The position numbers and the translations under genes are program-made. The notes under the pieces are model-generated. The model made no database searches. It saw only the letters and a program-made list of their open reading frames with translations, and was not told the DNA's origin. From an uncultured Methanosarcinales archaeon (lineage in GTDB: Archaea; Nanobdellota; Nanobdellia; Woesearchaeales; DSVV01), in assembly GCA_964556185.1 (NCBI GenBank), contig CAZKVI010000003.1, positions 2,089-66,088 of the forward strand: a DNA stretch of 64,000 nt, given 5' to 3'. Positions 7,220 to 59,083 of the stretch are shown in pieces (position 1 is the stretch's first letter; the number at the start of each line of letters is the position of its first letter).

Positions 7220-7239
7220 TAAAAATCGAGGTGAATTAA

Positions 7240-7452: not shown

Positions 7453-8769
7453 ACATAACATATGCTCTCTGAAGAAATTCATCTTCCGAGGGTATTTATT
7501 TATTTTTTCTATTGTTTTCTTATAATTATTTCTTAATTTAATAGCTTCTTTATTAGTCAATCCTGAAGAAACTTCATAAGTTAATCTAGGCTCCAATACA
7601 GTTCTTTGTTCTTCAATAATCTTAGTTATTTTGAATTTCTTTGGGTTTTTGTATACTTGAGAATCTTTTTGCAAACCAAATATTGAAACAGAGACTAAAT
7701 CAATATATTCATCATTATCTTTTAAGAATTGAATAGTTTCTAAGAATTCTTCTCTAGTTTCCCCTGGAAAACCAAACATTATGTAGACTACATTCTTTAT
7801 TCCTACTTCATGTGAATGTTTTAATACTTTTTCAACTTCTTCTTTGTTTGTTCCTTTGTTCATTAATTTCAAAACTCTATTATTTCCAGACTCAACACCC
7901 CAAATAACCATTGATAAACCAGATTCTTTTAATTTAACTAATGTTTCTTTGTTAATATCTTTTGGTTTTAATTGACAAGTGTAATTAACTTTTAATGGTT
8001 TTAAAACATTAGCTATTTCTAATAATCTTTTCTCATGTATCATGTCATCAATTAAAAAGAAATGTTTTTGTTTTGATTTCTTAATTGTTTGTTTTATTAA
8101 TTCTAAATTATATTCACAATAAGGTTGATTTGTAAAATGTGTACAAAAAGTACATCCTTTATAATAACAAGTTGATGATGTTTTAATTGGAATAACTGGT
8201 TCTGGACAAAAATACTCTTTTAGATTGTAAATAGAAAAATCAGGAACAATTTCACAGTTTAATTCATCATGTTTCACTTCTTCACCAATATATTTCAATA
8301 ATTCAACTTCATTATTCAAACACTTGGCCAGAGATTTTAATTTATCATTAACAGCAGGCCCACCAATTACAACATTCTTTAATTCTTTCAATAAAGCATA
8401 TGCATAAAATGCTTGACTTGAATAAACTAAACTAAATAAAACCAAATCAGGTTTCTTTTCTTGAATTTTCTTTAACATTTCTTCAAACAATTCTGGTTTT
8501 TCACCATTTACAACTGCTCTATTATTTTTCAGATATAATTTTGAAGTTATTTTGTTAAATTCTGTTGTTGTTTTTTCATAATCATCAAATTTACCTTCTT
8601 GGTAGTATTTATGATACTCTGGAAATTTCTTTTTATGAAATTCTAAATTCAAATCTAATACATCAATATTATGCTTTGAATTAGCCTTTAGAAATGAAGC
8701 TAAATAAGTCAATGAATAAGGAGGACTCGCAGGAGTACAAAACGGTAAATATACTAGTAATATGTTCAT
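7444..8769 (-). CDS. B12-binding domain radical SAM protein
   Basis: N-terminal MNILLVYLPF...PPYSLTYLASFL (B12-binding fold typical of class B radical SAM). Cys cluster CYYKGCTFC. Confidence 0.6.
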   Translation of the reverse strand: MNILLVYLPFCTPASPPYSLTYLASFLKANSKHNIDVLDLNLEFHKKKFPEYHKYYQEGKFDDYEKTTTEFNKITSKLYLKNNRAVVNGEKPELFEEMLKKIQEKKPDLVLFSLVYSSQAFYAYALLKELKNVVIGGPAVNDKLKSLAKCLNNEVELLKYIGEEVKHDELNCEIVPDFSIYNLKEYFCPEPVIPIKTSSTCYYKGCTFCTHFTNQPYCEYNLELIKQTIKKSKQKHFFLIDDMIHEKRLLEIANVLKPLKVNYTCQLKPKDINKETLVKLKESGLSMVIWGVESGNNRVLKLMNKGTNKEEVEKVLKHSHEVGIKNVVYIMFGFPGETREEFLETIQFLKDNDEYIDLVSVSIFGLQKDSQVYKNPKKFKITKIIEEQRTVLEPRLTYEVSSGLTNKEAIKLRNNYKKTIEKINKYPRKMNFFREHMLCSI

Positions 8770-27926: not shown

Positions 27927-28235
27927 ATGCAAAAAGCAAGAATAAAGATAGCAAGTACAGACATAGACAAGATTAATAATACTTGTAGGTATATTTCTGA
28001 TATAGCTGATAAAACTGGTGTTGATATGCGTGGTCCTATTCCTTTACCAACTAAAAAATTAAAATTAACTACTCGTAAAACTCCTTGCGGAGACGGAAAA
28101 GCTTCCTGGGAAAGATACGAAATGCGAATTCATAAAAGATTCATTGATCTCGGCTTAGATGAAAGAGCTTTAAGATTGGTTATGAGGGTACCAATACCTG
28201 AAGGCTTGAACATAGAAATTGAAATGATTGATTAA
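27927..28235 (+). CDS. rps10: 30S ribosomal protein S10 (uS10)
   Basis: KARIKIASTDIDKINNTCRYI... Conserved EF1A-S10 gene order. Confidence 0.9.
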   Translation: MQKARIKIASTDIDKINNTCRYISDIADKTGVDMRGPIPLPTKKLKLTTRKTPCGDGKASWERYEMRIHKRFIDLGLDERALRLVMRVPIPEGLNIEIEMID

Positions 28236-28297: not shown

Positions 28298-28336
28298 CCT
28301 GAAGGCTTGAACATTGAGATTGAAATGATAGACTGA
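28298..28336 (+). repeat. degenerate 39-bp direct repeat of the S10 gene 3' end (about 34/39 identical to 28197-28235)
   Basis: cctgaaggcttgaacatTgaGattgaaatgatAgaCtga versus the gene end cctgaaggcttgaacatagaaattgaaatgattgattaa. The 62-bp insert between the copies holds a GAA-triloop hairpin. Confidence 0.7.
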
Positions 28337-28390
28337 TTCTACCCAAAAGCTTTTATTTGATACTTGATTTCTCTCTATTTAGGGTGCAAA

Positions 28391-28828
28391 ATGGCTAAAG
28401 TTAAGAGTAATGCAATTGGAAAACTTGAAGATGGTACTGAAGATAATAGAGCATATAATGCATTGGTTCGTCAATATGGTGTTGCATTTAAAGAATTATA
28501 TGATAATTTTCCAAGAGAACCAAAACCAAGATTAGGTCTTTATATGATGAGTATTAAAAGACCTGAAGGAGTCTTACGTCTTACACCAGGGGTTGTTGGT
28601 AGTTCATCAGATGGGATCCAGAAAAGAGTTCAAGCACATCTAGGAAAATGCTTAGATCAAATTGGATTAGATGATTTATGTATGGACGTTTTTACAGTTT
28701 CTTGTAATAGTACGAGCAGTGTTTGTGAAATAACTCCTTACACACTTGAAGCTAGAGCTTATTTAAAACATTATGGACAACAAATACTTGTTCCAGAAAT
28801 GCGAAGATTAAGATCTCAATCAAAATAA
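28391..28828 (+). CDS. hypothetical protein
   Basis: ORF with internal ATG start (MAKVKSN). No recognised domain. Confidence 0.3.
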   Translation: MAKVKSNAIGKLEDGTEDNRAYNALVRQYGVAFKELYDNFPREPKPRLGLYMMSIKRPEGVLRLTPGVVGSSSDGIQKRVQAHLGKCLDQIGLDDLCMDVFTVSCNSTSSVCEITPYTLEARAYLKHYGQQILVPEMRRLRSQSK

Positions 28829-29232
28829 TCTTCATAAGCAAATTTTCTTTTTTCAAATGTACAAGATCCTTTGTCTTCAATAACATTTCCATCTAGAGAA
28901 TTCCTAAATCTAGCAATTAATGCATTACAATCACTACATCTTCGAAAACAAGTTCCAATTTCCACTTCAAAACCTTTTTCATTTAATTGTTTTAACTTAG
29001 TTGGCACTTCTGCTCTTTCTCTGAAGACATTATAAACATTATGAACAAAAGAAGAATCAATTATTGCATCAGAGAGTCTAATTTGAAGTTTACATTTCTT
29101 AGGTGCTTTAGTTTCAACAACATCTTTCCTTATAAGGATACATCTAGAATTCTTTAGTCTATTCTCTCTATCTTGCTTTTGCTTTGCAAACTTATCAGGA
29201 AGTTTAATACTTCCATCAGGATTGAATTCCAT
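28816..29232 (-). CDS. hypothetical Cys-containing protein (5' end trimmed to avoid the tRNA)
   Basis: The ORF-track N-terminus overlaps tRNA-Lys. Internal start MEFNPDGS chosen. Contains CFRRCSDC. Confidence 0.35.
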   Translation of the reverse strand: MEFNPDGSIKLPDKFAKQKQDRENRLKNSRCILIRKDVVETKAPKKCKLQIRLSDAIIDSSFVHNVYNVFRERAEVPTKLKQLNEKGFEVEIGTCFRRCSDCNALIARFRNSLDGNVIEDKGSCTFEKRKFAYEDYFD

Positions 29233-29236
29233 TTTA

Positions 29237-29356
29237 CGGGCCCACGGGGATTCGAACCCCGGGCCTATGGCTGTCTGTGCGTAAGCAAAGACCCAGTGGA
29301 TCTTTGATCCTAACGCGTAAGAGGCCACCGCTCTAACCAGGCTGAGCTATGAGCCC
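29237..29356 (-). tRNA. tRNA-Lys(CUU) with about 45-nt intron after position 37
   Basis: Manual fold: GGGCTCA/TGGGCCC acceptor, GCTC/GAGC D-stem, GTGGC/GCCAT anticodon stem, loop CU-CUU-A, T-arm CGGGG-TTCGAAT-CCCCG, discriminator G. Confidence 0.7.
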
Positions 29357-29443
29357 ATAAAGGGCTTGACTGACCAAAGGGAAGGAAACCCTTCTTGCGT
29401 GTCGACCGAGCGTAACCAGTCGCCACGGGTGAGATTGAGCCCA
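29357..29443 (-). ncRNA. GC-rich structured segment immediately 5' of tRNA-Lys; also begins GGGCUCA; identity unknown
   Basis: Local GC above 50% with stems (AAGGG...CCCTT). No T-arm, so not called as a tRNA. Confidence 0.2.
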
Positions 29444-29485
29444 TATTATTCTCAGAATTAAATATTAATTTATAAAAGTTCTTGA

Positions 29486-30367
29486 TTATCCTTGATAAAA
29501 ACCAATTAACTGTCTTTGTCTCTTAACATGTCTTAATTTTCTTAAGGCTTTTACTTCGATTTGTCTTATTCTTTCTCTTGTTAAATCAAATACTTGACCA
29601 ATCTCTTCAAGAGAATAATGACGAGGATGATCAATTCCATATCTCATTTTCATAACTTTTTCTTCTCTGGGTGTTAATTCAGCAAGTACACTTCTAACAG
29701 CCTTTGCTAAATCAGAATCCCCTACATTTTCATCAGGTCTTCGAACACTAGCTCCTTCTATAAAATCACCTATGGTTGCATCTGATTCATCACCAACTTT
29801 TTGCTCTAATGATAATGGTTCTCTTGCAAGCCTATAAATATCTTCAATTTTTTCAACTGGTTCACCTAACCAATCTGCAATTTCTTCAGAAGTTGGTTCT
29901 CTACCAAGATCAGTAACAAGTTTTCGAGCCGTTCTTCTAACTTTAGTAACCATTTCTAATTTATAAATTGGAATTCTTATTGTTCTTACTGTAGCTTCTA
30001 TTCCTCTAATAACACTTTGTCTAATCCACCAAGAAGCATATGTAGAAAATTTATATCCTCTTCTATATTCAAATTTTTCAACAGCTCTTATTAAACCTAA
30101 ATTACCTTCTTGAATTAAATCACCAAGTGGCAAGCCTCTATATTGGTATTGTCTTGCAATACTAACAACTAGTCTTAAATTGCCTTTTATTAAATCTTCT
30201 TTAGCTGTAGCTGCTTCATAAGGAGTGCCTTCTTCCATTGTTGTAGCTAATCTAACTTCATCATCTCTAGATAATAATGCTACAGCCCCCATTTGATTCA
30301 TATACTTCCTTAGAACTCTAGGATCATCTCTATATCTTGGCCCACCTTGATAATGACTAACACCCAT
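29486..30367 (-). CDS. bacterial-type RNA polymerase sigma-70 family factor (regions 1.2, 2, 3, 4)
   Basis: Region 1.2 [28 protein letters not shown]. Region 2 [58 protein letters not shown]. Region 4 [15 protein letters not shown]...[29 protein letters not shown]. Confidence 0.8.
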
Positions 30368-30406
30368 TTCATAAGGTAATCAATAGTTACTTTTAAACCT
30401 TCCTAG

Positions 30407-31510
30407 GTGGTCTGTGTTGATTATACCCATTCTCAAGTAGTTAAAAACAGAAAGGCTTATATATGGGATAAAGTACCTTCATATATAAAGTGGGGTTTAA
30501 ATATGAGTAAAGCAAGACAGCTTATACAAAGAGCATTGGCAGCAAAAGATGATGAATTTTTTGATGGTGTTTATAGATTTAAAAGAGGAAATGTGTTTTC
30601 ACCAATCCCTATAGACACAGCTGACCATCTTGATCTTTATAGTTCTATAGTTCAGCTTTTGAGACCAAGCAGAACACCAAGAAAATCTATTGGGGCAACT
30701 CTACTTTATCTTTTCTTAGTATCTTCACAGGAGTTTTATGGTCAAGGACCTAAAAATTATACAACTTTTGGAAGAAGAGGAAGAGATCAAATGAAAGAAC
30801 AATTGGAAGCATATTGTAGTTCTATATCTGCTTTAGAAATTGTTTATCATGATAATAATACACCAGATGGAGCTAATGCAACTGTAGGTAAATTTGATGA
30901 ACATAGCACAAGACATGAATTAGAAGATTTACTAGATCTTGTTCGAACTGATGAATGGAGAGAAGGAAGAAGTTATGAAATTGTTTATGTACAATCACCA
31001 GGAGATCTTGTTAGTGAAGATGGCAGAGAAGATATTGTAGCAGGTAGTTTATCTCAAAGATTTATAGAAGGACTTAGAGTACACGAAGATTATTTTGCAA
31101 CAAATGATACATTTAGAGAAGAAGTACCTGATGAAGATTATGCACACCTTTTTGAAGGTGATGTTAGTCATAGGGAAACATATGAACTATGTGATCAATA
31201 TCTTGTAGATCACCAAGAACTTTCAGATACAACAAGAGAACATCTTGAAGGATTTAGAGCTAGAATGTTATTCATGGCATGCTCACAAGAACAAGACCCA
31301 AAGGCGGAAGCTTTCTTTGATGGATTAGTTGCCCAAGTTTTACCAGCTCTCCCAACAGAAGAGTTTTACATAAATCAACTAGCTAGAAACGTTGCACAAA
31401 CTGGCGGTGTGTTAATTCTTGAAGGATTCCAACAACAAGAAGTAGAAGGTTTCGAACTTCTCCAAGAAGATAGGAATGTTCGTTTATACACTAGAGTTGT
31501 TGAGGAATAA
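30407..31510 (+). CDS. hypothetical acidic protein (Lys-poor)
   Basis: 367-aa ORF. True start may be at MSKARQL (30503). Confidence 0.35.
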   Translation: MVCVDYTHSQVVKNRKAYIWDKVPSYIKWGLNMSKARQLIQRALAAKDDEFFDGVYRFKRGNVFSPIPIDTADHLDLYSSIVQLLRPSRTPRKSIGATLLYLFLVSSQEFYGQGPKNYTTFGRRGRDQMKEQLEAYCSSISALEIVYHDNNTPDGANATVGKFDEHSTRHELEDLLDLVRTDEWREGRSYEIVYVQSPGDLVSEDGREDIVAGSLSQRFIEGLRVHEDYFATNDTFREEVPDEDYAHLFEGDVSHRETYELCDQYLVDHQELSDTTREHLEGFRARMLFMACSQEQDPKAEAFFDGLVAQVLPALPTEEFYINQLARNVAQTGGVLILEGFQQQEVEGFELLQEDRNVRLYTRVVEE

Positions 31511-31561
31511 CTCTAACTATTTATCAATAAACTTTAAAAGGACTTAATTTATTCCTAATTT

Positions 31562-32260
31562 ATGGATAACTCATTTATTGCTGAAGTTTTGAAATATTCT
31601 AATATGATGAATGTTGAGCAAGGTATGAATATTTATCATTTATTAAGTCAAGTACTTGCACAAGATATTCCTGGAGAAATAGTTGAACTTGGGTGTTATG
31701 AAGGTATTACAGGTGTTCTTATCCAGAAAACATTAGATCAAGCAAATAGTAAAAAAGAATTACATTTATTTGATTCTTTTGAAGGCTTACCAAAAGTCTT
31801 ACCAGAAGATGGTCTTACTACAGCAAAAGAAGGTATGTTACGAACAGCAAAAGATAGTGTTATAGCAAACTTTAACAGATTTAATTTAAAACAACCTACT
31901 ATTTTTGAAGGTTGGTTTAAAGATACTTTACCAACTAATCTACCTGATAAAATATGTTTTGCACATTTAGATGGAGATATGTATTCTTCAATAATAGAAA
32001 GTCTTAATTATATTTATCCAAAACTTTCTAAAGGTGCAATTGTTATTATTGATGATTATTATTGTCGTGAAGGCCATATGAAAATAGAAAAAAGAATGAA
32101 TGAAAATTCATACCAACAATTTCGTAATATAATAACAGAAGTCAAAGATATTCTTCCAGGTGTAAAAAAAGCATGTGATGAGTTCTTTGAAGATAAACCA
32201 GAGAAAATAATTGTTTTAATGGCAGGTTGCGAAAGACATGCATATTTTAAGAAAATGTAG
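31562..32260 (+). CDS. TylF/MycF-like class I SAM-dependent O-methyltransferase
   Basis: GEIVELGCYEGITGVLI...LHLFDSFEGLP...FAHLDGDMYSS...IVIIDDY. Confidence 0.55.
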   Translation: MDNSFIAEVLKYSNMMNVEQGMNIYHLLSQVLAQDIPGEIVELGCYEGITGVLIQKTLDQANSKKELHLFDSFEGLPKVLPEDGLTTAKEGMLRTAKDSVIANFNRFNLKQPTIFEGWFKDTLPTNLPDKICFAHLDGDMYSSIIESLNYIYPKLSKGAIVIIDDYYCREGHMKIEKRMNENSYQQFRNIITEVKDILPGVKKACDEFFEDKPEKIIVLMAGCERHAYFKKM

Positions 32261-32295
32261 TTAAATTTATAATACATTGCTTCTAATCTAAGAAA

Positions 32296-32973
32296 ATGGA
32301 AAAACTACACAGAGTTCAGAAATTATTAAGCAACTACGGCTATTGTTCTAGACGAAAAGCTGAAACATTAATCCAAGATGGAAGAGTTAGAGTAAATAAC
32401 AAAAGAATTACAATTGGTGATAAAGCTACTGAGAAAGATAATTTATATGTAGATAATAAACTAGTAAATAAAGAAAGTAAAATATACATAATCTTCAACA
32501 AACCTGTTGGTTGTGTAACTGCAGTAAGAGACAGAGATTACAAAACAGTTATGGATTTTGTAAAAGTTAAAGAAAGAGTTTTCCCAATTGGAAGATTAGA
32601 TTTCAACACTTCTGGATTATTATTGTTAACAAATGATGGAGACTTTGCTAACAAAGTAATGCATCCAAGATATGAAGTAGAGAAAACATACATCGTAGAA
32701 ATTGACAGACAAATTAGTAAAAAAGATATGCTAAATATCCAAAGAGGAGTTAAATTAAGAGATGGATTCACTTCCCCAGCTAAACTTAGAAGAATTAACT
32801 TAGATATAATAGAAATTAAAATCCACGAGGGCAAAAACAGAGTTGTAAGAAGAATCTTCAACAAATTAGGTTATAGAATTAACTCATTAGAAAGAGTTGC
32901 AATTGGTAAACTAAGATTAGGCAAATTACAATCTAAAAAATACAAAATTCTAAAAACAGAACCAAGAATTTAA
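32296..32973 (+). CDS. RsuA/RluB-family pseudouridine synthase with N-terminal S4 domain
   Basis: S4 domain LHRVQKLLSNYGYCSRRKAETLIQDGRVRVN. Catalytic VFPIGRLDFNTSGLLLLTNDGDFANKVMHP. Confidence 0.85.
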   Translation: MEKLHRVQKLLSNYGYCSRRKAETLIQDGRVRVNNKRITIGDKATEKDNLYVDNKLVNKESKIYIIFNKPVGCVTAVRDRDYKTVMDFVKVKERVFPIGRLDFNTSGLLLLTNDGDFANKVMHPRYEVEKTYIVEIDRQISKKDMLNIQRGVKLRDGFTSPAKLRRINLDIIEIKIHEGKNRVVRRIFNKLGYRINSLERVAIGKLRLGKLQSKKYKILKTEPRI

Positions 32974-35222
32974 CCCCAAGAATAATCAACAACTATATGC
33001 ACTGGAACTATTGTGCCACCATACTCAAAATTTCCCATACCTGCTCCTTGTAATCTTGTTGCATCGTTATTTAATTCTGCTAAAACATCTGGATTATTTG
33101 GATAATGAGGAACAACACTAGTCTTACTTGTAGATGAATCATGGAAATATCCAAATGGATCTGGTGTTGCAATTCCCCAGAAATCACATGTTCTTGAGAA
33201 CTCAGAAGACTCCCACCAAGATAATAACCAGTCAGTACTTCCATCATAAACATTCAAATTAACTTCATAAGCAGAAGGATCATCTTCAGAAGCTTCTAAT
33301 CTTGTTGGTGCTTTACTTGAAGAAGGATATTTCTCATCAACTTCCCATGTATTATATTCAGAACCACTTACAGTACTTGAATCACTTTCCCATTGCAGAC
33401 TACATGATCTTGCGTATTCTATAAATTGGTGTTCATTATAACTATAATAAAGCATTTGATCTTTAACAACAAACTCATCATTGTCCTCGTCATAAACCAA
33501 TGTATCTCTTGACATCATATATCCTCTTTCAAACCAAGATCCTGTTCCAGGATCTCCTGATAAAGTTAATTCAGACATATCTACAGATGTACTATAACTC
33601 CATGAATAAGTTGTATAACCACTCCATTCAGGAGCACATTTACCTTCTGCATCAATATCAAATTGAGTAAATGCAATATTATCTAAATGTGAATTTGCAA
33701 CAATAACAACTGCTACATCTATTTCTTCTGTTGGTCTTGTTCTACAAAATTTTAACTTTTTCAACTCAGAAACATCTTGGTAAAACCAATGCTCTCCAAT
33801 TTTATAAACTATTTGTGTTGCAAAGTCTGGTTGAGAATCTGTAGTAATTAAACTAAAATCAAACTCAACTCTATCAATATCATCTTCAAAGAAATAATAA
33901 TAATACATTATTCCTCCTGGGTTTAAATTAACTTCTTGAGTGTATTTTTCTTTATTCTCAAATGTTTTCTTTTTCCTACTTTGTCCATATGGTTTTTTTG
34001 TTGGTTTATTATTATGATCATAATAAAACTTAAATGGTTCTGTATTGTAATTGTATAAAGCATATTGTTTAAACTCTTCATAAAAGTCTGGTCTATTTTT
34101 TATTGCATCTTTCATACCTAATAAACCTGCTTCATCTAACATTTTCTTGACGACCATTCCATCTTTTCCATATCTATGTGATAAAAACCAAGGCCATAAA
34201 TAAGAACCATATTGATGATAAGTTACATTATCAGAGTCAAAAAAATCTTTATTAAAATAAGGAAAAATATTACTATCAAAACCATGCTCTGTATTAACTT
34301 CAGGATATGTAAAATCTTCTGACCATGTTGCAGTTGATTCCCAAATCCATTCTTCTGTAGAATATGACTTCAAAGGAATATATTGTTGAAAACAATGAAA
34401 TAATTCATGTGCTGTTGATGTTTTTAATGCATCATCACTTTGTGAAGTACTAATTAAAATATGACATCTATTAGCTCCTTCATGATCATCCATATATTGT
34501 TGTCCATCATCTTCTAAGCTTTGTACTTTTACATAAATCCAATCTGTTGGTTCTTTCATTCCAAGATTTTTATATTTATTATAAGAATGTTCTAAAGCAG
34601 CTTTTACAATATCTGCTTTATCAGTTATCCAAGGATCATCATAATGCACTTGCCATTTTCCATCAATTGGATGTTCATTATCCATTGCATTTACTGAAGG
34701 TATAATAGCTACTGCATCTAAAAATTCCCTTGCTAAAGATTCATCTTCTTGATTAATTTTATACCAATAACTTTCAGGATCATCAGGATTTGTAACAAAA
34801 GGTCTTAGAATATCTTGTGTTTCCTCAGAGAAATCATCAATTCTATCATTAATCATCAATAATAAGAAAGAACTATCTCTTCTTTCTGCTCTAATTGATT
34901 TGTATTCATTTGGTAAGTTTTTATGATCAAATGCTTCCAAAACTCTTAGAATATAATACTCTTCTTCTGTAATTATTCCTTTATTATGATAAGCATCATT
35001 GATTAATGTTAGAGATAATGGTTCTTCAGGTTCCTCTGGTTCTCTTTCTTCATAAATATCTAATAACCAGTCTTCAAAATCACTTGTATCTACATTACCA
35101 CCACCAATTGAAAATCCACTATCATCACTTCCACAACCTTTGAATAACAAGAATAGAATTACTAATATTACAATACCTACAATTGCAAGAAGAATAGTTT
35201 TCCGCCCCATAGGCATTTCCAA
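32970..35222 (-). CDS. large secreted/membrane-anchored protein with HExxH zinc-metallopeptidase motif
   Basis: N-terminal TM/signal segment (ILLAIVGIVILVILFLLFKGCGS); TAHELFHCFQ. Confidence 0.5.
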   Translation of the reverse strand: MEMPMGRKTILLAIVGIVILVILFLLFKGCGSDDSGFSIGGGNVDTSDFEDWLLDIYEEREPEEPEEPLSLTLINDAYHNKGIITEEEYYILRVLEAFDHKNLPNEYKSIRAERRDSSFLLLMINDRIDDFSEETQDILRPFVTNPDDPESYWYKINQEDESLAREFLDAVAIIPSVNAMDNEHPIDGKWQVHYDDPWITDKADIVKAALEHSYNKYKNLGMKEPTDWIYVKVQSLEDDGQQYMDDHEGANRCHILISTSQSDDALKTSTAHELFHCFQQYIPLKSYSTEEWIWESTATWSEDFTYPEVNTEHGFDSNIFPYFNKDFFDSDNVTYHQYGSYLWPWFLSHRYGKDGMVVKKMLDEAGLLGMKDAIKNRPDFYEEFKQYALYNYNTEPFKFYYDHNNKPTKKPYGQSRKKKTFENKEKYTQEVNLNPGGIMYYYYFFEDDIDRVEFDFSLITTDSQPDFATQIVYKIGEHWFYQDVSELKKLKFCRTRPTEEIDVAVVIVANSHLDNIAFTQFDIDAEGKCAPEWSGYTTYSWSYSTSVDMSELTLSGDPGTGSWFERGYMMSRDTLVYDEDNDEFVVKDQMLYYSYNEHQFIEYARSCSLQWESDSSTVSGSEYNTWEVDEKYPSSSKAPTRLEASEDDPSAYEVNLNVYDGSTDWLLSWWESSEFSRTCDFWGIATPDPFGYFHDSSTSKTSVVPHYPNNPDVLAELNNDATRLQGAGMGNFEYGGTIVPVHIVVDYSWG

Positions 35223-35294
35223 TGTCTTCTACTATTTAAATTTTAAGAAAATCTTTATAAATAACTATATTAATTAATTCCATGGGGTGATATA

Positions 35295-35828
35295 ATGAAA
35301 TACTTAGCAATAATCTTAGCAATTTCACTTTTATTTTTAGCAGCCTGTGGTGGAGATAATGATGACCAATCTGCTCTACAACAAAGAGCAGCTGAAAAAC
35401 AAGTTGAATATGCAGCAGACGCAGCTGAAGATGCTGCAGAAGAAGCAGCTCACGAAGCTTCACAAGAATTAGTAAACTTCAAATGTGTAATTGCAGACAT
35501 GCAAACAATATATTTCTACAAAGAAAAAGCCAAAATAAAATCTGATTGGAGTGAATCATGGTTAAATGATGATGGTTCTTTTGTAGTAATGGAATTAATG
35601 GGTGAAGAATATCTTGTTCAATACCCAGCAGATCAATCTGAAATGGATAGAGAAGGAATGATGACAACTTATCACACTTCTAAAACATTAGATAATATTG
35701 ATTGTGAATTAGATGTTGTCACAGAAGCAGACGTAACTCTTCCAGACTTAGAAATAGTTAGTGACGAAGAATTCCAGAACTTATTAATGGAAGATATGAT
35801 GGCTGGTTACGAAGATATGTATGAATAA
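35295..35828 (+). CDS. acidic lipoprotein
   Basis: Signal peptide with lipobox LFLAACGG. Confidence 0.5.
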   Translation: MKYLAIILAISLLFLAACGGDNDDQSALQQRAAEKQVEYAADAAEDAAEEAAHEASQELVNFKCVIADMQTIYFYKEKAKIKSDWSESWLNDDGSFVVMELMGEEYLVQYPADQSEMDREGMMTTYHTSKTLDNIDCELDVVTEADVTLPDLEIVSDEEFQNLLMEDMMAGYEDMYE

Positions 35829-35846
35829 TTATTTCTTTTTTTCTTT

Positions 35847-36605
35847 TTATTCTTTTGCTTGTTTCCATAAAGTCTCAAAAAACTTTCTAAAACCATCAAC
35901 TGTTTCTTGATTTTTCATTAAAATTCCAATTGGTTTTTTCTGAGAAATAAACAAAAGCACATATTCATTATAAACATAAGTTTCAACTAATGTTTTTTGA
36001 TGTAAATATCTTATTTCATGTAATTTACAATTATCATAATATATATGTCTTTGTTTTCTTTTTCTCATGTCCTCATTAAAGATTATTCTAACTTTGAAAC
36101 CTCGTTTCTCAACTCTAGCTTGGTGTTTTCTCCAAAAAATATCACCAACTTCAGGTTCTTTTCCAGCACTTGCTCCAAAAACTAAACTTTCATCTCCTTT
36201 TGACATAGAATTCTCAAGAGTTAAAAAAGCAGTTTTCAATCCATCCCAACCATAAAAGACTTCAACATCAACACTTTCTTCTGTTTTTTGATACTTCAAC
36301 AATAATGTTGGTAATAATTCTTCAACTAAAGTTTCTTCTTCAATAATCTCTTTTTTCTTTTCTTGAATAAAGTCCTTTAGTCTTTTAGGATTCGCAGCAC
36401 TAAAATGAATTACTCCATTTTTCTTTACAGATGAGATAATACCTTTTTCTAATAATCTATTTGCTATTTCATAAACCTTTGAAGAAGAAATACCAGATTT
36501 CTTAACTAGTTTTGTTCTAGTACTTTCACCTAATTCTAATAAAGCATTGTATACCTTGATTTCACCTTCTGTAAGCCCTATTTTCTTTAAATCTTTGAGA
36601 TCCAT
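35847..36605 (-). CDS. TrmB-family transcriptional regulator
   Basis: N-terminal LGLTEGEIKVYNALLELGESTRTKLVKKSGISSSKVYEIANRLLEKGII plus C-terminal effector domain. Confidence 0.7.
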   Translation of the reverse strand: MDLKDLKKIGLTEGEIKVYNALLELGESTRTKLVKKSGISSSKVYEIANRLLEKGIISSVKKNGVIHFSAANPKRLKDFIQEKKKEIIEEETLVEELLPTLLLKYQKTEESVDVEVFYGWDGLKTAFLTLENSMSKGDESLVFGASAGKEPEVGDIFWRKHQARVEKRGFKVRIIFNEDMRKRKQRHIYYDNCKLHEIRYLHQKTLVETYVYNEYVLLFISQKKPIGILMKNQETVDGFRKFFETLWKQAKE

Positions 36606-36705
36606 ATATTTAGATTATATTAAGAATATATAAATCTTTCTATAGTTGCCCCTGAAGGGGGTGCATGAGTTTAAATACCTAATACTATTCAGTAGTAATA
36701 AAATG

Positions 36706-38541
36706 TGCGGAATAAATGGAATAGTGGATTATAAAGCCTCAATTGATGATTCAATAGTTCATGCTATGAATGATTCATTAGCACATAGGGGTCCAGATGG
36801 TGAAGGAATTTTCACATCAAGAACCAGGAATGTCGCATTAGGGAATAGGAGATTAAGTATTGTTGATATTGACAATGGTTCACAACCTGTTGTTGTAACT
36901 CACAATGGTTATGAATTTGCAATAACTTATAATGGTGAAGTTTACAATCACAAAGAGTTAAGACACGAATTAGAAAGCAGAGGATATAAATTTAAAACAA
37001 ACTCTGATACAGAAGTTGTATTAAATGCATATGTTGAATTTGGAGAAAGATGTGTAGATAGATTTAATGGTCAATTTGCTTTTGCAATCTATGATGGAAA
37101 AAAAGATTCAGTTTATTTAGCAAGAGATAAATTTGGAATTAAACCTTTATATTATGCTAATGTTAATGGTGCACTTGTTTTTAGTTCAGAACCAAAAGGA
37201 ATTTTAACTCATCCTAATTTTAATGCTAAACCAAATTTAGAAACAATTGCAGACTTTTTTTTAACAATGGATATATTTACAGATGGCCATATTTCATTAA
37301 ATAGAACTTTTTTTGATGGAATTCATGCACTTGAACCAGGAATGTATTGTGTTGTTGATAGAAATGGTTCTGAAATACAAAGATATTGGGATGTTAATAT
37401 TCATACAGATAATCCGGATGAAATTACAGAAGAATTAATTAGAAATGCAGTCTCAATTAGAATTCCTGATGAAGTTAGAGTAGGAACTGCTTTAAGTGGT
37501 GGTTTAGATTCAAGTATTGTAACTTATTTAACATTACAACAAGGACACCAACTTCCTGCTGCAACTGTTAAATACAATGGTGTTAAGTACAATCCAGATT
37601 GGGATCATGCACAATTATTTGCAGACGAGTTTGGAGTAGAAAATCTTTGTGTAGGATTAGATGCAAACACACTACTTGATGATATTGATCCAATGATTAG
37701 AGCAATGGATGAACCACATACTTCAATAAGACAACTTGGGTTGTATGCAACTTATAGGGCTTTAAGTAATGCAGGTTGTAAAGTTGTATTGGTTGGAGAG
37801 GGTGCAGATGAATTTAACATGGGTTATTTCTGGGATTATCCTGGGTTTTTTAAAGATCATGATAAAGTCGCTAGTGCAAATTCACTAAGAACATTCATGC
37901 AAAGAAAAGTAGGATTTGTTTCAAGATATTTTACAAGAGATTTTTTAGATGGGATTAATTTTAACACAGTAATTGATTCTACAATTGAAAATTATTACAG
38001 TAGATGTAAACATCCAGATAAATTTGAAAGAATGAGATATTATTATGCTAAAAAATTCTTAAAATATAGATTGGATGCTAATGATAAGTGTGGAATGGCA
38101 CATTCAGTTGAAGCTCGTGTCCCATTTTTAGATCCGGGTGTTGTGGCTGCAGCATTAAGCATACCTTACAAAGATCATTTAAGATTTGGAAGTGAAAAAT
38201 ATCCTTTAAGACATGCATTTGAAACCCAACTTCCACAAGCAATCATTGATAGAAGAAAATATTCTTTTCCTGAGAGCCAAGATGTTAGATTTCATAAAAT
38301 GGTTGCAGATGAATTAGATAGAAATATGTATGGAATTAATAGTGAAGTTTGGGATATTTTTGATAGAAATTATGTAACAGAATTAAATACAAGATTCAGA
38401 AGAAAATTAAGTTTATTACATGGAAAAGACGCTACTGATTTAACCACTGAAACAGCAATGAATGAAGATGATGATGTCAGAATAAAACATGTATTTAGTG
38501 TATTAACATTCATGCGTTGGTTTGAGATGAATTTTGGTTAA
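36706..38541 (+). CDS. asnB: asparagine synthetase (glutamine-hydrolysing) / AsnB-family amidotransferase
   Basis: N-terminal MCGINGI (Cys2 nucleophile); SGGLDSS PP-loop. Confidence 0.85.
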   Translation, partial: CGINGIVDYKASIDDSIVHAMNDSLAHRGPDGEGIFTSRTRNVALGNRRLSIVDIDNGSQPVVVTHNGYEFAITYNGEVYNHKELRHELESRGYKFKTNSDTEVVLNAYVEFGERCVDRFNGQFAFAIYDGKKDSVYLARDKFGIKPLYYANVNGALVFSSEPKGILTHPNFNAKPNLETIADFFLTMDIFTDGHISLNRTFFDGIHALEPGMYCVVDRNGSEIQRYWDVNIHTDNPDEITEELIRNAVSIRIPDEVRVGTALSGGLDSSIVTYLTLQQGHQLPAATVKYNGVKYNPDWDHAQLFADEFGVENLCVGLDANTLLDDIDPMIRAMDEPHTSIRQLGLYATYRALSNAGCKVVLVGEGADEFNMGYFWDYPGFFKDHDKVASANSLRTFMQRKVGFVSRYFTRDFLDGINFNTVIDSTIENYYSRCKHPDKFERMRYYYAKKFLKYRLDANDKCGMAHSVEARVPFLDPGVVAAALSIPYKDHLRFGSEKYPLRHAFETQLPQAIIDRRKYSFPESQDVRFHKMVADELDRNMYGINSEVWDIFDRNYVTELNTRFRRKLSLLHGKDATDLTTETAMNEDDDVRIKHVFSVLTFMRWFEMNFG

Positions 38542-38647: not shown

Positions 38648-39094
38648 ATGCTAGACGGAAAACAAATTGCAGATGTTGTTAGAGCTTTTGAAGAAGAAGT
38701 ATTAAGCCAAATAGCTCCTGATCAAGCAGCAGATGCAGCTGCAGATCTTGATATGAGGTTACGTAGAGATTTATTAGGTGATGCAGTGTTCGGTGATATT
38801 GTTTTTAAAGATGGTTATTATTATAGCACAAGTTCCCAGTATGGCAAACAAAAAGCAGACTCAACACCAGGTCTTATCTTAAGGTATTTATTGGACCATG
38901 AAGGAGAAACTTTCTCAAAAGATGAACTCTTTCCAAACATTCCACGTGAAGACAGTACTTGTTCTGGTGCATTAACACTTGATGTTATTCCTTGGGTAAA
39001 TGAATATTCAAAAGTCTATGAAGCATTTAAAGAAGGATATGCACCTACAAAATATGGAATAAGAAGAATACAAGAAGCTCCTCAAGATACTTAA
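38648..39094 (+). CDS. hypothetical acidic protein
   Basis: 148-aa ORF with no recognised domain. Confidence 0.3.
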   Translation: MLDGKQIADVVRAFEEEVLSQIAPDQAADAAADLDMRLRRDLLGDAVFGDIVFKDGYYYSTSSQYGKQKADSTPGLILRYLLDHEGETFSKDELFPNIPREDSTCSGALTLDVIPWVNEYSKVYEAFKEGYAPTKYGIRRIQEAPQDT

Positions 39095-40038
39095 TCTTCC
39101 ATATCTTTTATTTTCTTCCAATCTTCTTCCATCTCTCGCAACAATTCAATATCAAATTTCTCAGATAACTTTTTCCTTAATTTTGCAGCACCAGGAACAC
39201 CTTTTGTGAAAAAGAATGCGTGCTGTTTTAAGTCATTGAAATCAAGATTAAACTCTTTCCATAACTTAAGATACTCTTCAAACATTTCAACTTTCGATTT
39301 CTGCTCCAAAACTTTCCCAGTCCTAAGATACTCATCAATCTGTTTAAACAAAAATGGATTTCCACATGCAGCTCTTCCAATCATTATTCCATCACAATTA
39401 GTCTGTTTCAATAATAACTCTGCACTTTTGCAATCAACAACATCTCCATTTCCAATAACTGGAATATTTAATTCATCCTTAACTTCCTTAATCACAAACC
39501 ATTTTGCTTTGCCAGAATAAGATTGCGCAACTGTTCTACCATGAATAGTTATTGCAGATGCTCCTGCCTTCTCTATCACCCTCGCAATCTTCAAACAATT
39601 ATGCTTTTTAATACCAGATCGAATTTTCGCAGTAACTGGTTTATCAGTAGAAGAAACCATTGCTTCAATAATTTCTTTAATCTTTGCAGGCCTTTTCAAT
39701 AAAGCAGAACCAGCACCTTGTTGTATAATTTTTCTAGCAGGACAACCAAAATTAAAATCAATTATATCTGCTTTTTTCTCAATAATTGAAACAGCTTTTT
39801 TAATAACATCTATTCTAGTTCCAAATAATTGCATTGCTACTGGCTTATCTCTAGCACAAGTAGCTGTCATTCTTATTGTAGCTTTATTATTCCTAGATAA
39901 GGCATTTGCATTGATCATCTCACTAACACATAATCCAGCATTATACTTATTACACATAACCCTAAAAGCCACATTTGAAACACCTGCCATAGGTGCCAAT
40001 ATAAGGTTATTCCTTAACTTTAGCTTGCCAATCTTCAT
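39091..40038 (-). CDS. dus: tRNA-dihydrouridine synthase
   Basis: KLRNNLILAPMAGVSNVAFR...FNFGCP... FMN-binding TIM barrel. Start set at MKIGKLKL. Confidence 0.85.
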   Translation of the reverse strand: MKIGKLKLRNNLILAPMAGVSNVAFRVMCNKYNAGLCVSEMINANALSRNNKATIRMTATCARDKPVAMQLFGTRIDVIKKAVSIIEKKADIIDFNFGCPARKIIQQGAGSALLKRPAKIKEIIEAMVSSTDKPVTAKIRSGIKKHNCLKIARVIEKAGASAITIHGRTVAQSYSGKAKWFVIKEVKDELNIPVIGNGDVVDCKSAELLLKQTNCDGIMIGRAACGNPFLFKQIDEYLRTGKVLEQKSKVEMFEEYLKLWKEFNLDFNDLKQHAFFFTKGVPGAAKLRKKLSEKFDIELLREMEEDWKKIKDMED

Positions 40039-40091
40039 ATATGTGAAGAAATTCATAATATTTATAAAACCTTCCAACTTCGCAATTTTCT

Positions 40092-42887
40092 ATGTCAATA
40101 CAACCTACAAAGAAAAACCCAATATTCTCATTTATTATACCGATCTTAATTGTAATTTTCTTTTCATCAACTAAATTAATCAATTTAGTAACAGATTATT
40201 GGTGGTTCGATGCATTAGGTTTCAAAGAAATCTTTATGATCAGCTTAAAAGCTAAATTAACATTATTCATAGCAGCAGCATTATTCTTCTTCATATTCGC
40301 ATTAATTAATCTAACTATCTCAACCTATCTAAACAAGAAAATAACAATGCCAAAAGGTGTTAAACCAATACCATTTAGATTCAAACTTTTATTAACATCT
40401 TTAGTGGCTTTATTTGTTGGTTTTGTATCTTACAATTCTTGGTTTAATGTTTTGCAATACTTAAATCAAACACCTTTTAATTTACAAGATCCAATATTTT
40501 TTAGAGATGTTGCATTCTATGTGTTTTCATTGCCATTTTTCTTATTTGCCTGGAAATTTTTAATGGCAACTTTAGTAATTACAACAATTATTGTAGCTAT
40601 AGATTATTTACAAGCAATATTCTTTTCATTACTTAAGAAAAAACATGACAAACCACAAGTTGTTGATGCAAACGGAATCCCAAGAAGTACTGGTCAAATA
40701 AACATAGCTGAAATATTCAAAAACATAAAACAATATGCATTAGTACATCTAGCTTTCTTAGGTTCATTATTTTTCATTTTATTAGCTGTAAAACATTATT
40801 TAACAAAATTCTCAATTATGTATTCAGAAGCAGGAATTGTCGTCGGAGCCGGTTATACAGATGTAGTAGTTTTTGTCCCAATTGTAAAATTACTTACAAT
40901 CTTAGCAGTCATTGTGTCTGTATTATTCTTTGTCTGGATTTTTGTAATATCAAAATCACAAAGATTAAAGAAAAGACATATTTTAGCTTACTTCGTAATC
41001 CTATATTTGATATTTTTCTTTATAGCACCAACAGTAATCCCAGGTGTAATTCAAGCATTAAAAGTTGATCCAAATGAAATCAATCTAGAAAAACCTTATA
41101 TTGAAAACAATATTGAATTTACAAAAATTGCTTACGGTTTAGAAGATGTTGAAGAAACAGATTTCTCAGTAGAAATGTCATTAACACCAGAAATCTTAGA
41201 AGAAAATCCAGAAACAATTGATAATGTAAGAATATTAGATTGGAGACCATTAACACAAACATATAAACAAACACAAGAAATAAGGTTGTATTATGATTTA
41301 GCAAATATTGATATTGATAGATATACAATTGAAGGAAAATATACAGAAGTCATGCTCTCACCAAGAGAAATTAATCAATATCAAATCATAGATAATGCAC
41401 AAACATGGGTTAATTTACACATGGTTTATACTCATGGTTATGGTGTTGTAGTAAGTCCTGTTAATAAAGTCACAGAACAAGGAATGCCTGAGTATCTTGT
41501 ACAAGATATTCCATCTGTGTATAATGTTGATGAACCTTCTTTAATTGTAGAAACACCACAAATATATTATGGAGAAATAGACAATGATTTTATCTTAACA
41601 AACACATTAACTCCAGAATTTGATTATCCAAAGGGAAACACAAATGAATACCTGCATTATGATGGAAATGGCGGAATTGTTCTCGACACTTTCTGGAAAA
41701 AAGCATTAATGGCATTAAGATTCATGGATATTAAGATATTATTATCAGATGATTTAACTATAGAAAGTAAGATAATGTTTACAAGAGCAATCCAAGACAG
41801 AATTGCAAAATTAACACCATTCTTAATGCTTGATTATGATCCTTATTTAGTTATCAATGATGGAAAATTATATTGGATACAAGATGCTTACACTTATACA
41901 GGGAACTTCCCATACTCTGAAAAATACAACATGATTAATTACATGAGGAACTCTGTGAAAATTGTAGTCGATGCATACAATGGAGATGTAACTTATTATA
42001 TTGTTGACACAGAAGATCCATTAATTGCAACATATGCAAAAATCTTCCCAGATCAATTTAAGTCATTCGAAGAATTCCCAGAAGGATTAATTGAACATAT
42101 TAGATATCCTGAAAACTTATTTGATATACAAGCTTACATTTATAGTACATATCATATGAATGATCCAACTGTCTTTTATAATAAAGAAGATGCATGGGAT
42201 ATTCCTACAGAAGTCTATGGTACTGGTCAACAAATATATGTTGAACCATATTATATTATTATGAAATTACCAGGAGAAGAATCTGAAGAATTTGTTTTAA
42301 TGACTTCATTTACTCCAATAAGTAAAGATAATATGATTGCATGGCTAGCAGCAAGATCTGACGGAGATAATTATGGTAAACTATTGTTATACAAATTCCC
42401 AAAAGATAAATTAATCTATGGTCCATTACAAATAGAAGCTAAATTTGACCAAGACTCAGAAATATCTCAGCAATTAACACTTTGGTCTCAACAAGGTTCT
42501 AGTGTTACAAGAGGTAACTTATTAGTAATTCCAATTGATGATAGTATTTTATACATTGAACCACTTTATATCCAAGCAGAAACAGGTCAATTGCCAGAAT
42601 TAAAAAGAGTTTTAGTTTCAGATGGAGAAAGAGTAGTAATGGAACAATATTTATCAGATGCATTAGAAATTCTATTCGGAAAATCATCAACAGTTGAAGA
42701 TACAGAAGACGACAGGGAATATACTGGAGATGTAGAATACTCAGGCGATGAAACAGATGAAGAATTAATGCAATCTGCTCAAGATTACTATGATTCAATA
42801 TTAGAATCTATGGAATCTGGTGATTGGGTAGAATTTGGAGAAAACTTTGACAATCTTGGCCAAGTTTTGAATGAATTGAATAATTAA
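40092..42887 (+). CDS. UPF0182 (COG1615) family large membrane protein
   Basis: 931 aa; N-terminal polytopic TM region, large extracytoplasmic domain, acidic C-terminus. Confidence 0.55.
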   Translation: MSIQPTKKNPIFSFIIPILIVIFFSSTKLINLVTDYWWFDALGFKEIFMISLKAKLTLFIAAALFFFIFALINLTISTYLNKKITMPKGVKPIPFRFKLLLTSLVALFVGFVSYNSWFNVLQYLNQTPFNLQDPIFFRDVAFYVFSLPFFLFAWKFLMATLVITTIIVAIDYLQAIFFSLLKKKHDKPQVVDANGIPRSTGQINIAEIFKNIKQYALVHLAFLGSLFFILLAVKHYLTKFSIMYSEAGIVVGAGYTDVVVFVPIVKLLTILAVIVSVLFFVWIFVISKSQRLKKRHILAYFVILYLIFFFIAPTVIPGVIQALKVDPNEINLEKPYIENNIEFTKIAYGLEDVEETDFSVEMSLTPEILEENPETIDNVRILDWRPLTQTYKQTQEIRLYYDLANIDIDRYTIEGKYTEVMLSPREINQYQIIDNAQTWVNLHMVYTHGYGVVVSPVNKVTEQGMPEYLVQDIPSVYNVDEPSLIVETPQIYYGEIDNDFILTNTLTPEFDYPKGNTNEYLHYDGNGGIVLDTFWKKALMALRFMDIKILLSDDLTIESKIMFTRAIQDRIAKLTPFLMLDYDPYLVINDGKLYWIQDAYTYTGNFPYSEKYNMINYMRNSVKIVVDAYNGDVTYYIVDTEDPLIATYAKIFPDQFKSFEEFPEGLIEHIRYPENLFDIQAYIYSTYHMNDPTVFYNKEDAWDIPTEVYGTGQQIYVEPYYIIMKLPGEESEEFVLMTSFTPISKDNMIAWLAARSDGDNYGKLLLYKFPKDKLIYGPLQIEAKFDQDSEISQQLTLWSQQGSSVTRGNLLVIPIDDSILYIEPLYIQAETGQLPELKRVLVSDGERVVMEQYLSDALEILFGKSSTVEDTEDDREYTGDVEYSGDETDEELMQSAQDYYDSILESMESGDWVEFGENFDNLGQVLNELNN

Positions 42888-48649: not shown

Positions 48650-48763
48650 CGCTGTGGCCCGGATTTGAACCGGGATATCCCGGAGGAAACAAGCTAAACA
48701 GTGCATGCCTTGAAAATACATACATTTCCAGGCTTGCGCAGTACCAGGTTGTGCCACCACAGC
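48650..48763 (-). tRNA. tRNA-Ser(GGA) with about 30-nt anticodon-loop intron and long variable arm
   Basis: Acceptor GCTGTGG/CCACAGC, anticodon stem CAAGC/GCTTG, loop CU-GGA-A, T-arm CCCGG-TTCAAAT-CCGGG, discriminator G. Confidence 0.55.
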
Positions 48764-48772
48764 AAAAAAAGG

Positions 48773-48897
48773 TGGCAGTGGCGGGATCTGAACCCGCGGC
48801 TTCTAGATCGCCCAGATATAAAGTTTAATCATCGGCATGAGCCTCATCACTCAAATCTTATGAGTCTAGCACTCTAACCAGGCTGAGTTACACTGCC
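48773..48897 (-). tRNA. tRNA-Met/Ile2(CAU), elongator type, with 50-nt intron
   Basis: Acceptor GGCAGTG/CACTGCC, D-stem ACTC/GAGT, anticodon stem CTAGA/TCTAG, loop CU-CAU-AA, T-arm GCGGG-TTCAGAT-CCCGC. Intron contains GUGAUGA. Confidence 0.7.
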
Positions 48898-58715: not shown

Positions 58716-58772
58716 GTCACAATACAAACATTTTTAAATATTCTAAATTTCATTTGAAAAAGACCAGATATT

Positions 58773-59058: not shown

Positions 59059-59083
59059 TTTTCTTTTTGATTTTGATTAAGAA

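Follow-up and report, generated by a model that had tools for sequence, protein, structure and literature searches.

A sigma-70 gene of bacterial ancestry in a probably mosaic neighborhood beside tRNA-Lys of a Woesearchaeota-like archaeon

We analyzed a 64-kb stretch of DNA (hereafter the window) in which a block of genes with a bacterial flavor adjoins an intron-containing tRNA-Lys gene. The block begins with a sigma-70 gene and continues through an acidic orphan gene (hyp367, hereafter the orphan), a TylF-like methyltransferase and a pseudouridine synthase to an HExxH protein and a lipoprotein, beyond which lie genes for a TrmB-family regulator, AsnB, and DusB (Table 1). An earlier note, made from the letters of this DNA alone, had listed the genes beside tRNA-Lys and read them as one old, ameliorated island integrated at the tRNA. 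We annotated the proteins of the window against Pfam and NCBIfam, scanning ~40 open reading frames (ORFs) across the window, with small ORFs partly outside the scan. Every gene on that list was recovered with Rfam, Pfam, or NCBIfam, and Pfam/NCBIfam matches bore out the bacterial type of several of them. The window itself carries archaeal markers (aEF-2, aEF-1alpha, S10, L7Ae, Rpo7, and L1/P0, with a histone on the source contig), has a GC content of ~31%, and was found, identical in sequence, in a 56-kb JGI contig and in a 69-kb NCBI/ENA contig. Since all named homologues of the synthase are from Woesearchaeota or "Nanoarchaeota," the host, as judged by these relatives, is a Woesearchaeota-like DPANN archaeon. 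For comparison, we used the corresponding loci of three close archaeal lineages, designated L008, L012, and L011/L036/L037, which together with the window's own lineage make up the four archaeal lineages referred to below.

Table 1. Features of the region around the tRNA-Lys gene, in window coordinates (aa, amino acids; nt, nucleotides)
Feature	Position	Strand	Basis or remark
Two hypothetical genes on the 3' side of tRNA-Lys	28364-29232	+ (154 aa), - (138 aa)	lineage-specific; no families
tRNA-Lys(CUU) with intron	29237-29356	-	Rfam RF00005, 55 bits against a gathering score of 29
tRNA-Lys, 5' exon	29356-29318	-	
tRNA-Lys, intron	29317-29273	-	
tRNA-Lys, 3' exon	29272-29237	-	
GC-rich structured element, 86 nt	29357-29442	-	between conserved TATA-like promoter and tRNA-Lys 5' end
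Sigma-70 factor, 293 aa	29486-30367	-	regions 1.2-4.2; Pfam, NCBIfam
Divergent intergenic region between sigma-70 and orphan, 135 nt	30368-30502		alignment of four lineages
Acidic Lys-poor orphan (hyp367), 367 aa as called	30407-31510	+	family-less
TylF-like S-adenosylmethionine (SAM)-dependent methyltransferase	31562-32260	+	PF05711, 124 bits
S4 + PseudoU_synth_2 pseudouridine synthase (RsuA/RluB/RluF family)	32296-32973	+	TIGR00093, Pfam
HExxH protein, 750 aa, membrane-anchored or secreted	32970-35222	-	HELFH motif; weak NF045524 match
Lipobox (LAAC) acidic lipoprotein, 177 aa	35295-35828	+	sequence
TrmB-family regulator	35847-36605	-	Pfam, NCBIfam
Asparagine synthase AsnB	36646-38541	+	Pfam, NCBIfam
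DusB, bacterial-type tRNA dihydrouridine synthase	39091-40077	-	TIGR00737

The sigma-70 protein matched four Pfam domains above their cutoffs (PF04542, 71 bits; PF04539, 76; PF04545, 69; and PF00140, 35), corresponding to an architecture in which regions 1.2, 2, 3, and 4 are present and region 1.1 is absent. The equivalog level of RpoD or RpoS was not reached in NCBIfam, the scores being 377 against a cutoff of 555 for NF004208 RpoD, 313 against 354 for RpoD_Cterm, and 266 against 379 for RpoS. When searched against PDB, the protein matched RpoD structures (E = 3e-87), with region 2.x and 4.2 motifs nearly intact; the motif DLIQEGNxGLxxAVEKFxxxxGxKFSTYAxWWIRQ and one further motif are likewise nearly intact.

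Homologues of this sigma fall into three tiers: four archaeal sequences at 75-100% identity, fourteen sequences at 64-69%, and hundreds at ~55-61%, the named ones among the last being from metagenome-assembled genomes (MAGs) of Myxococcota, Deltaproteobacteria, or Proteobacteria. Scanning GTDB representative genomes with highly specific peptide patterns of the sigma yielded distant bacterial matches only. In a neighbor-joining tree of the best 120 homologues, the four archaeal sequences were monophyletic and sister to a clade of bacterial sequences (P0006-P0019), with both nested in a bacterial radiation. Three members of the sister clade, on contigs with a GC content of 68-71%, share a bacterial gene order (methylmalonyl-CoA mutase, TatAC, GGDEF, DivIC, ExbBD, sigma, PKD protein, and RNase D); no lineage-specific NCBIfam model was matched among these neighbors. 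Protein identity to the sister clade is 63-73% for the archaeal sigmas as a group and 67-73% for that of the window. The GC content at third codon positions (GC3) of the sigma gene is 0.90-0.96 in the bacteria vs. 0.105-0.122 in the archaea, so its synonymous sites have been fully ameliorated. The amino acid composition of the archaeal sigma, with 6% Lys and 11.6% Arg, is like that of its bacterial relatives, while typical window genes have ~10% and ~4.5%, respectively; this retained Arg-rich, Lys-poor composition explains the "Lys-poor" look on which the earlier note had remarked. Neither the sigma nor the TylF-like protein had relatives in IMG/VR contigs, and PHROG returned only generic families (sigma-factor for the former and methyltransferase/glycosyltransferase for the latter). 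Judged from these sequences, an interdomain transfer of the sigma-70 gene from a high-GC bacterial lineage into a narrow archaeal clade is well supported. The idea of an old, ameliorated import thus stands for the sigma-70 gene alone, on the strength of its tree and GC3; for the block as one island, it is not supported.

Given such high identity to bacterial sigmas, one might ask whether the gene reflects bacterial contamination or a chimeric assembly on an archaeal contig. However, its GC3 in the window (0.105) equals that of the flanking archaeal genes, compared to 0.94 in the bacterial relatives, and the gene order has been recovered independently on at least eight contigs, which come from different samples and represent four diverged lineages. 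The conserved promoter region is, moreover, of archaeal type, and we regard an artifact as vanishingly improbable.

We then assessed how strongly the sigma gene is constrained, using the ratio of nonsynonymous to synonymous substitution rates (dN/dS). This ratio was 0.33-0.52 in the archaeal lineages, compared to 0.08-0.27 in the bacterial sister clade. Comparison genes gave 0.09 (S10), 0.13 (EF-1alpha), and 0.06-0.18 (pseudouridine synthase), and the other block genes 0.29 (HExxH protein) and 0.56-0.88 (orphan). With 24 bacterial homologues as reference, each archaeal copy retains 113-117 of the 128 bacterially invariant columns (~90%); the changes at these columns are mostly conservative, with conservation highest in regions 2 and 4, as in bacteria. 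Purifying selection therefore still acts on the sigma, less strongly than in bacteria but in the same regional pattern. The intergenic region that separates it from the divergent orphan is also conserved, with ~110 invariant columns of ~150 in the alignment of the four lineages and with TATA-like boxes, one of which, TTTAAAAG, lies ~25-30 nt upstream of the sigma ATG. Separately, a second sigma-70 gene of 296 aa stands in tandem with the first in L011 (2264-3154) and L036 (6947-7837). It is very divergent and sits on a very long branch of the tree, which suggests a duplication followed by rapid divergence.

These data bear on whether the sigma is anything more than a functionless passenger that has been decaying slowly since a chance transfer. 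A passenger would account for a dN/dS above those of both the bacterial sister clade and the host's housekeeping genes, and it would sit well with a host in which no bacterial core RNA polymerase is expected and with promoter motifs that are not enriched: a scan of 26-41 kb for sigma-70-type promoter motifs found 60, against 68 ± 8 in shuffled sequence. Yet the sigma reading frame is intact in four lineages at a synonymous divergence (dS) of ~0.3-0.4, ~90% of the bacterially invariant residues are kept, with regions 2 and 4 kept best, and the promoter region is conserved. Furthermore, the gene has been duplicated in one lineage, and complete amelioration of its GC3 implies a long residence without loss. 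We consider the passenger explanation very unlikely and favor a regulatory sigma predicted to bind DNA and polymerase. This prediction is made because the autoinhibitory region 1.1 is absent and the -10/-35 recognition and core-binding motifs are almost intact. The protein would most likely still bind DNA in the archaeon, possibly also the clamp coiled-coil of the archaeal RNA polymerase, and would most likely act as an accessory transcription regulator.

A bolder proposal, which we hold to be unlikely, is that the sigma and the orphan form a domesticated two-gene module. Such a module would either couple an initiation factor of bacterial type to the transcription machinery of the archaeon (for example, at the RNA polymerase clamp coiled-coil) or pass into a bacterial partner cell and redirect the RNA polymerase there. 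Near-intact core-binding and -10/-35 motifs would be expected to persist after codon amelioration if the target were still a bacterial-type polymerase or promoter.

The orphan is itself peculiar. With 3.3% Lys and 17.4% Asp plus Glu, and as a family-less protein, it fully deserves its earlier description as a Lys-poor acidic hypothetical, and its K/(K+R) ratio of 0.31 is the same as that of the sigma. Translation of the orphan probably begins with the ATG at 30503 (MSKARQ...). Only four homologues were found among 5.8e9 proteins, all of them beside the sigma in the related archaeal clade; a profile search extended the family to 21 proteins among 1.84e9 representatives, the distant ones being rich in Lys and comparable in length. 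No Pfam, PDB, or PHROG match was obtained, including in profile searches against Pfam and PDB, and an AlphaFold2 (AF2) model had a mean predicted local distance difference test (pLDDT) score of 54, with nothing below E = 0.1 when compared with PDB by Foldseek. The orphan is divergently paired with the sigma in every related archaeal locus. Its nearest outgroup homologue (P0254, on the archaeal contig L039) lies instead directly beside a Dus gene, whose product is 77% identical to DusB of the window, and has no sigma next to it; on its other side stand a multi-intron tRNA and, beyond that, a phage-type integrase accompanied by TIR and SDH-protease genes. Since the orphan occurs without a sigma in L039, we infer that it predates the sigma, which was inserted beside it.

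This order of events bears directly on whether the sigma and the orphan, as a partner or anti-sigma, were transferred jointly as a two-gene cassette from a bacterium or virus into an otherwise native region. That all four archaeal lineages have the two genes divergently paired, with conserved intergenic DNA between them, would suit a joint transfer, as would the K/(K+R) ratio that the two proteins share. In addition, an equally long gene (367-369 aa) stands immediately upstream of the bacterial sigma homologues. We therefore considered the orphan as a diverged copy of that bacterial gene (PF10023 "Aminopep") and rejected this, the two not being homologous (BLAST E = 0.11; hhalign probability 0.2%). 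Nor were there any bacterial-looking orphan homologues, the 21-member family being Lys-rich, and viral relatives were not found either in IMG/VR, searched with the sigma and TylF, or in PHROG. Together with the outgroup orphan that sits beside an archaeal Dus gene and lacks a sigma, these results make a joint cassette quite unlikely.

The pseudouridine synthase has a different history. Its domains score 46 bits (PF01479) and 75 bits (PF00849), and it exceeds the TIGR00093 cutoff (142 bits vs. 109). At the equivalog level, the best matches are RluF, RluB, and RsuA, all below the E. coli equivalog cutoffs, and the catalytic-loop motif GRLD is present. Among its 120 best matches, which have 59-96% identity, all those that carry a name are assigned to "Candidatus Woesearchaeota" or "Nanoarchaeota archaeon." In three outgroup lineages, where the synthase is 65-72% identical, it occupies three unrelated archaeal neighborhoods, none with a sigma, and it follows that the synthase did not arrive with the sigma. 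On these sequence comparisons, it is a bacterial-type gene that is lineage-wide in Woesearchaeota, strongly constrained and vertically inherited. The earlier note had taken the synthase for a foreign gene of the island: its family is indeed of bacterial type, but its nearest relatives are archaeal and it is found throughout the lineage.

The remaining block genes are of mixed distribution. The TylF-like protein exceeds the PF05711 cutoff of 23 by a wide margin, covering profile positions 78-241 of 264; the gene is found in the window's own lineage only, being missing from L008, L012, and L036, and its nearest metagenomic relatives, 53-56% identical, stand in a Bacteroidota context (GldA equivalog) and in a sugar-biosynthesis cluster. 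By contrast, the HExxH protein and the lipoprotein are conserved in the clade, the former 83% identical to its L008 orthologue and the latter 91% identical to a 179-aa protein of L008. The HExxH protein has an N-terminal hydrophobic helix ahead of no recognizable Pfam domain at E ≤ 0.01; it scored 58 bits against NF045524 (MXAN_6640 family), below the cutoff of 140, and DUF6055 is recorded on its orthologues in the relatives. TrmB and AsnB are specific to the window's lineage and do not occur at the corresponding position in the L008 and L036 lineages.

We next considered whether the whole block, from sigma to lipoprotein, might nonetheless be one ancient island at tRNA-Lys whose integrase was lost and whose composition was ameliorated. 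Several features are those of an island: the block adjoins a tRNA and holds several bacterial-type genes, both sigma and orphan are Arg-rich and Lys-poor, the tRNA flanks vary within the clade, and an outgroup relative has an integrase beside its tRNA. The position of the block, however, is wrong. Classical tRNA integration replaces the 3' part of the gene, so an island is expected on the 3' side of the tRNA. Here, tRNA-Lys is read from the minus strand, its 3' terminus falling at 29237, and the block, which begins at 29486, lies on the 5' (promoter) side of it. The variable cargo of the sister lineages is small and is found on the opposite, 3' side, where L008 has a LAGLIDADG ORF and L036 a radical-SAM gene that is split in L037. 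In the window, the 138-aa gene starts 4 nt past the tRNA-Lys 3' end, leaving no cargo inserted on that side.

No trace of the integration event was detected either. The far att site for which the earlier note had suggested a search, a partial tRNA-Lys 3' repeat downstream, was not found when 29200-29470 was compared with the 64-kb window by blastn-short: there was no partial tRNA-Lys copy, the only matches being generic 15-16-nt D-arm/T-arm ones at 48.9 kb and 58.9 kb, and no relevant repeat lay within 27-41 kb. The same note had stated that no integrase is present, and indeed no integrase family was matched in the ORFs scanned, nor in PHROGs (small ORFs, as noted, lay partly outside the scan). 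The GC3 of the block genes (0.105-0.197) is not anomalous relative to the rest of the window (~0.08-0.39, mostly 0.1-0.25).

Gene order in the relatives is equally telling. The core of the block (sigma, orphan, synthase, HExxH protein, and lipoprotein) is syntenic in the L008, L012, and L036 lineages, within a backbone common to relatives that runs from S10, the 138-aa gene, and tRNA-Lys through these genes and onward to Dus. What varies between lineages is TylF and TrmB-AsnB (window only), a 190-aa gene (L008 only), and the second sigma (L011/L036). The block is thus not missing as a unit from relatives, as an island would be; the core is conserved in three and only TylF and TrmB-AsnB are missing. 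TrmB/AsnB, which the island idea took for the native flank, are absent at this position from the L008 and L036 lineages and hence are recent additions, so the supposed boundary is itself lineage-specific. Bacterial-type genes also continue outside the block, with DusB, while the synthase is lineage-wide and placed elsewhere in outgroups and the orphan predates the sigma. The earlier note had held that conserved synteny and archaeal phylogenies would speak against an island; synteny is conserved and the nearest relatives of the synthase belong to archaea, but the phylogeny of the sigma points to bacteria. With the block on the wrong side, no att repeat or integrase match, and genes of differing histories, we judge a single old island at tRNA-Lys to be highly improbable.

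The outgroup locus L039 deserves separate mention. Its tRNA (7736-7878, minus strand) is a multi-intron gene of ~143 nt that was detected by neither Rfam nor ARAGORN; parsed manually, it has the acceptor stem GCCCCGU/ACGGGGC and a possible Glu-CUC anticodon. The phage-type integrase (6419-7624, minus strand) lies on the 3' side of this tRNA and is followed by the TIR and SDH-protease genes. The locus looks like a genuine tRNA-associated defense island; no att repeat was found in the 10 kb of sequence covered.

Taken together, the evidence makes it likely that the region is a mosaic in a Woesearchaeota-like DPANN genome, in which genes arrived or moved at different times, rather than a single island. 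We favor this explanation because the outgroup contexts of the synthase are unrelated, the L039 orphan has no sigma, TylF, TrmB, and AsnB are patchy in distribution, and there is neither an att repeat nor a compositional anomaly. In the sequence of events that we envisage, a short primary-like sigma-70 (regions 1.2-4.2) would have passed by single-gene transfer from high-GC bacteria into the archaeal ancestor of a narrow clade, landing between the promoter of tRNA-Lys and an archaeal orphan that was already there. Domestication would then have brought archaeal synonymous-site composition and a TATA-type promoter, with duplication in one sublineage. The synthase and DusB would be much older bacterial-type genes, present lineage-wide, of which the synthase merely moved into the neighborhood. 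The HExxH protein and the lipoprotein would represent clade-level additions, and TylF and TrmB-AsnB would have been added recently in the window's own lineage.

Several points weigh against this reconstruction. The sigma-less state comes from one outgroup locus only (L039), which has a different tRNA, and none of the loci compared shows the exact empty site, in which the orphan would directly follow tRNA-Lys. The sigma tree is a neighbor-joining tree of only the best 120 matches, and the nearest named matches, from Myxococcota/"Deltaproteobacteria" MAGs, are ~60% identical. For TylF, the HExxH protein, and the lipoprotein, the named homologues were covered only in part. As for the fate of the sigma after its arrival, its raised dN/dS could mean slow decay, sigma-70-type promoter motifs are not enriched around the block, and any function in an archaeal cell, where no bacterial core RNA polymerase is to be expected, is something that we infer purely from sequence.

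Outside the block, DusB (TIGR00737, 320 bits vs. a cutoff of 293) serves as a conserved anchor on the far side. Just beyond it, at 40092-42887, lies the gene for a 931-aa UPF0182 protein (PF03699, 910 bits), bacterial-flavored like DusB. On the other side, the 154-aa and 138-aa hypotheticals are 88% identical to those of relatives, with dN/dS of 0.11-0.20. The last 35 nt of S10 are duplicated 101 nt downstream (28197-28231 and 28298-28332) at 91% identity. This duplication is found in the window's own strain only (L001 and L002) and not in relatives, and it may be what an earlier insertion or deletion left behind at the 3' end of S10.

The observations made along the way at the tRNA-Lys gene are, in our view, the least ordinary part of the region. 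In the window, the gene has a CUU anticodon and a 45-nt intron at the canonical position 37/38, because of which ARAGORN overlooks it; the L008 orthologue, 75 nt long and intron-less, is called by ARAGORN as tRNA-Lys(ctt). Indeed, the interruptions of tRNA-Lys(CUU) differ among the four close lineages (window, 29237-29442; L008, 7060-7134; L012, 2989-3115; and L011, 3205-3398). The window combines the canonical intron, which has a relaxed bulge-helix-bulge (BHB) motif, with the 86-nt element. L012 has a D-loop insertion of 29 nt and a T-loop insertion of 21 nt at 59/60, both with good BHB motifs, and L011 has a T-loop insertion of ~31 nt plus the 86-nt 5' element; L008 has none. Such lineage-specific sets imply very rapid intron gain and loss at tRNA-Lys. 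In L008 (7096-7833, minus strand), and likewise in L009 and L010, there is a free-standing LAGLIDADG_3 homing-endonuclease ORF of 245 aa, which in L008 lies directly 3' of the intron-less tRNA-Lys with a slight overlap; this endonuclease may be linked to intron turnover at tRNA-Lys.

A 9-nt direct repeat, ATGGGCTCA, bounds the 86-nt element, which recurs at 100% identity in the L011/L036/L037 lineage and is missing from L008 and L012. This identity persists despite compensatory changes in the tRNA stems between the L011/L036/L037 lineage and the window and a dS of ~0.3 in neighboring genes. Folding of the element gave a minimum free energy (MFE) of -30.7 kcal/mol (z = -2.6). We tried three assignments and rejected each: it has no Rfam match as a known RNA family; it is present as a single copy in the window, not as a repeated mobile element; and as a BHB intron, none of 10 registers combined a central helix with flanking helices in a strict scan that does recover the L012 introns. 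The element might represent a 5' leader, an insertion that was mobile recently, or a small co-transcribed RNA.

Two further intron-containing tRNAs, of 114 and 125 nt, stand in tandem at 48650-48763 and 48773-48897 (minus strand) and were detected by Rfam only, making three intron-containing tRNAs in the window by that method. Elsewhere, the 15-nt T-arm-like match at 58915-58929, within the intergenic gap 58716-59083, may mark an uncalled interrupted tRNA.

What a bacterial sigma does beside a TBP/TFB-dependent archaeal RNA polymerase has been an open question since sigma-70 genes were first noted in DPANN archaea. The present locus offers a clean test case: the donor-side sister clade can be identified, amelioration is complete yet ~90% of the invariant residues are kept, the archaeal promoter is conserved, and there is a constant orphan neighbor together with one lineage-specific duplication. 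It also carries a caution, namely, that bacterial-flavored genes beside a DPANN tRNA need not amount to an island, since bacterial-type genes are scattered and of very different ages.

Several known systems invite comparison. With tRNA-integrated genomic islands, the region shares tRNA adjacency, foreign-flavored genes, and variable content near the tRNA; it differs in lying on the 5' side, in showing no integrase, att, or compositional signal, and in having a core that is conserved in relatives. The synthase resembles the RsuA/RluB/RluF family in its S4 and PseudoU_synth_2 domains, its above-cutoff TIGR00093 score, and its GRLD motif, but it falls below the cutoffs of the E. coli equivalogs and is inherited across Woesearchaeota rather than carried as island cargo. 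The tRNA-Lys genes recall the multi-intron archaeal tRNA genes with noncanonical BHB introns of Thermoproteales and DPANN (cf. PMC5829648), through the D- and T-loop insertions of L012 and the canonical-position intron of the window. Here, however, the intron set is unlike in all four close lineages, and the 86-nt element lacks a convincing BHB.

The sigma itself is akin to the bacterial primary-like group 1/2 sigmas (the C-terminal part of RpoD, RpoS, and SigB-type) in possessing regions 1.2, 2, 3, and 4. It departs from them in having no region 1.1 and no nonconserved insertion, in its sub-equivalog scores, and in its archaeal host, archaeal-type promoter, and relaxed constraint. Among archaea, sigma-70 genes have been reported in DPANN, where they are "particularly prevalent in Woesearchaeota," come with no anti-sigma factors, and act by an unclear mechanism (Castelle et al. 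2021, PMC8204110). Like the published fam00359, the sigma described here has regions 2, 3, and 4, is encoded on a contig with archaeal markers, and has no recognizable anti-sigma nearby. This likeness is one of description. No named Woesearchaeota protein is among the 120 best sigma homologues, and the sigma of the window may represent a separate, younger acquisition than the published ones, limited to four close lineages. We regard the locus as a further example of the published DPANN sigma-70 phenomenon, to which it adds a high-GC bacterial sister clade, full codon amelioration with a bacterial amino acid composition, a conserved archaeal promoter, and a constant orphan neighbor.

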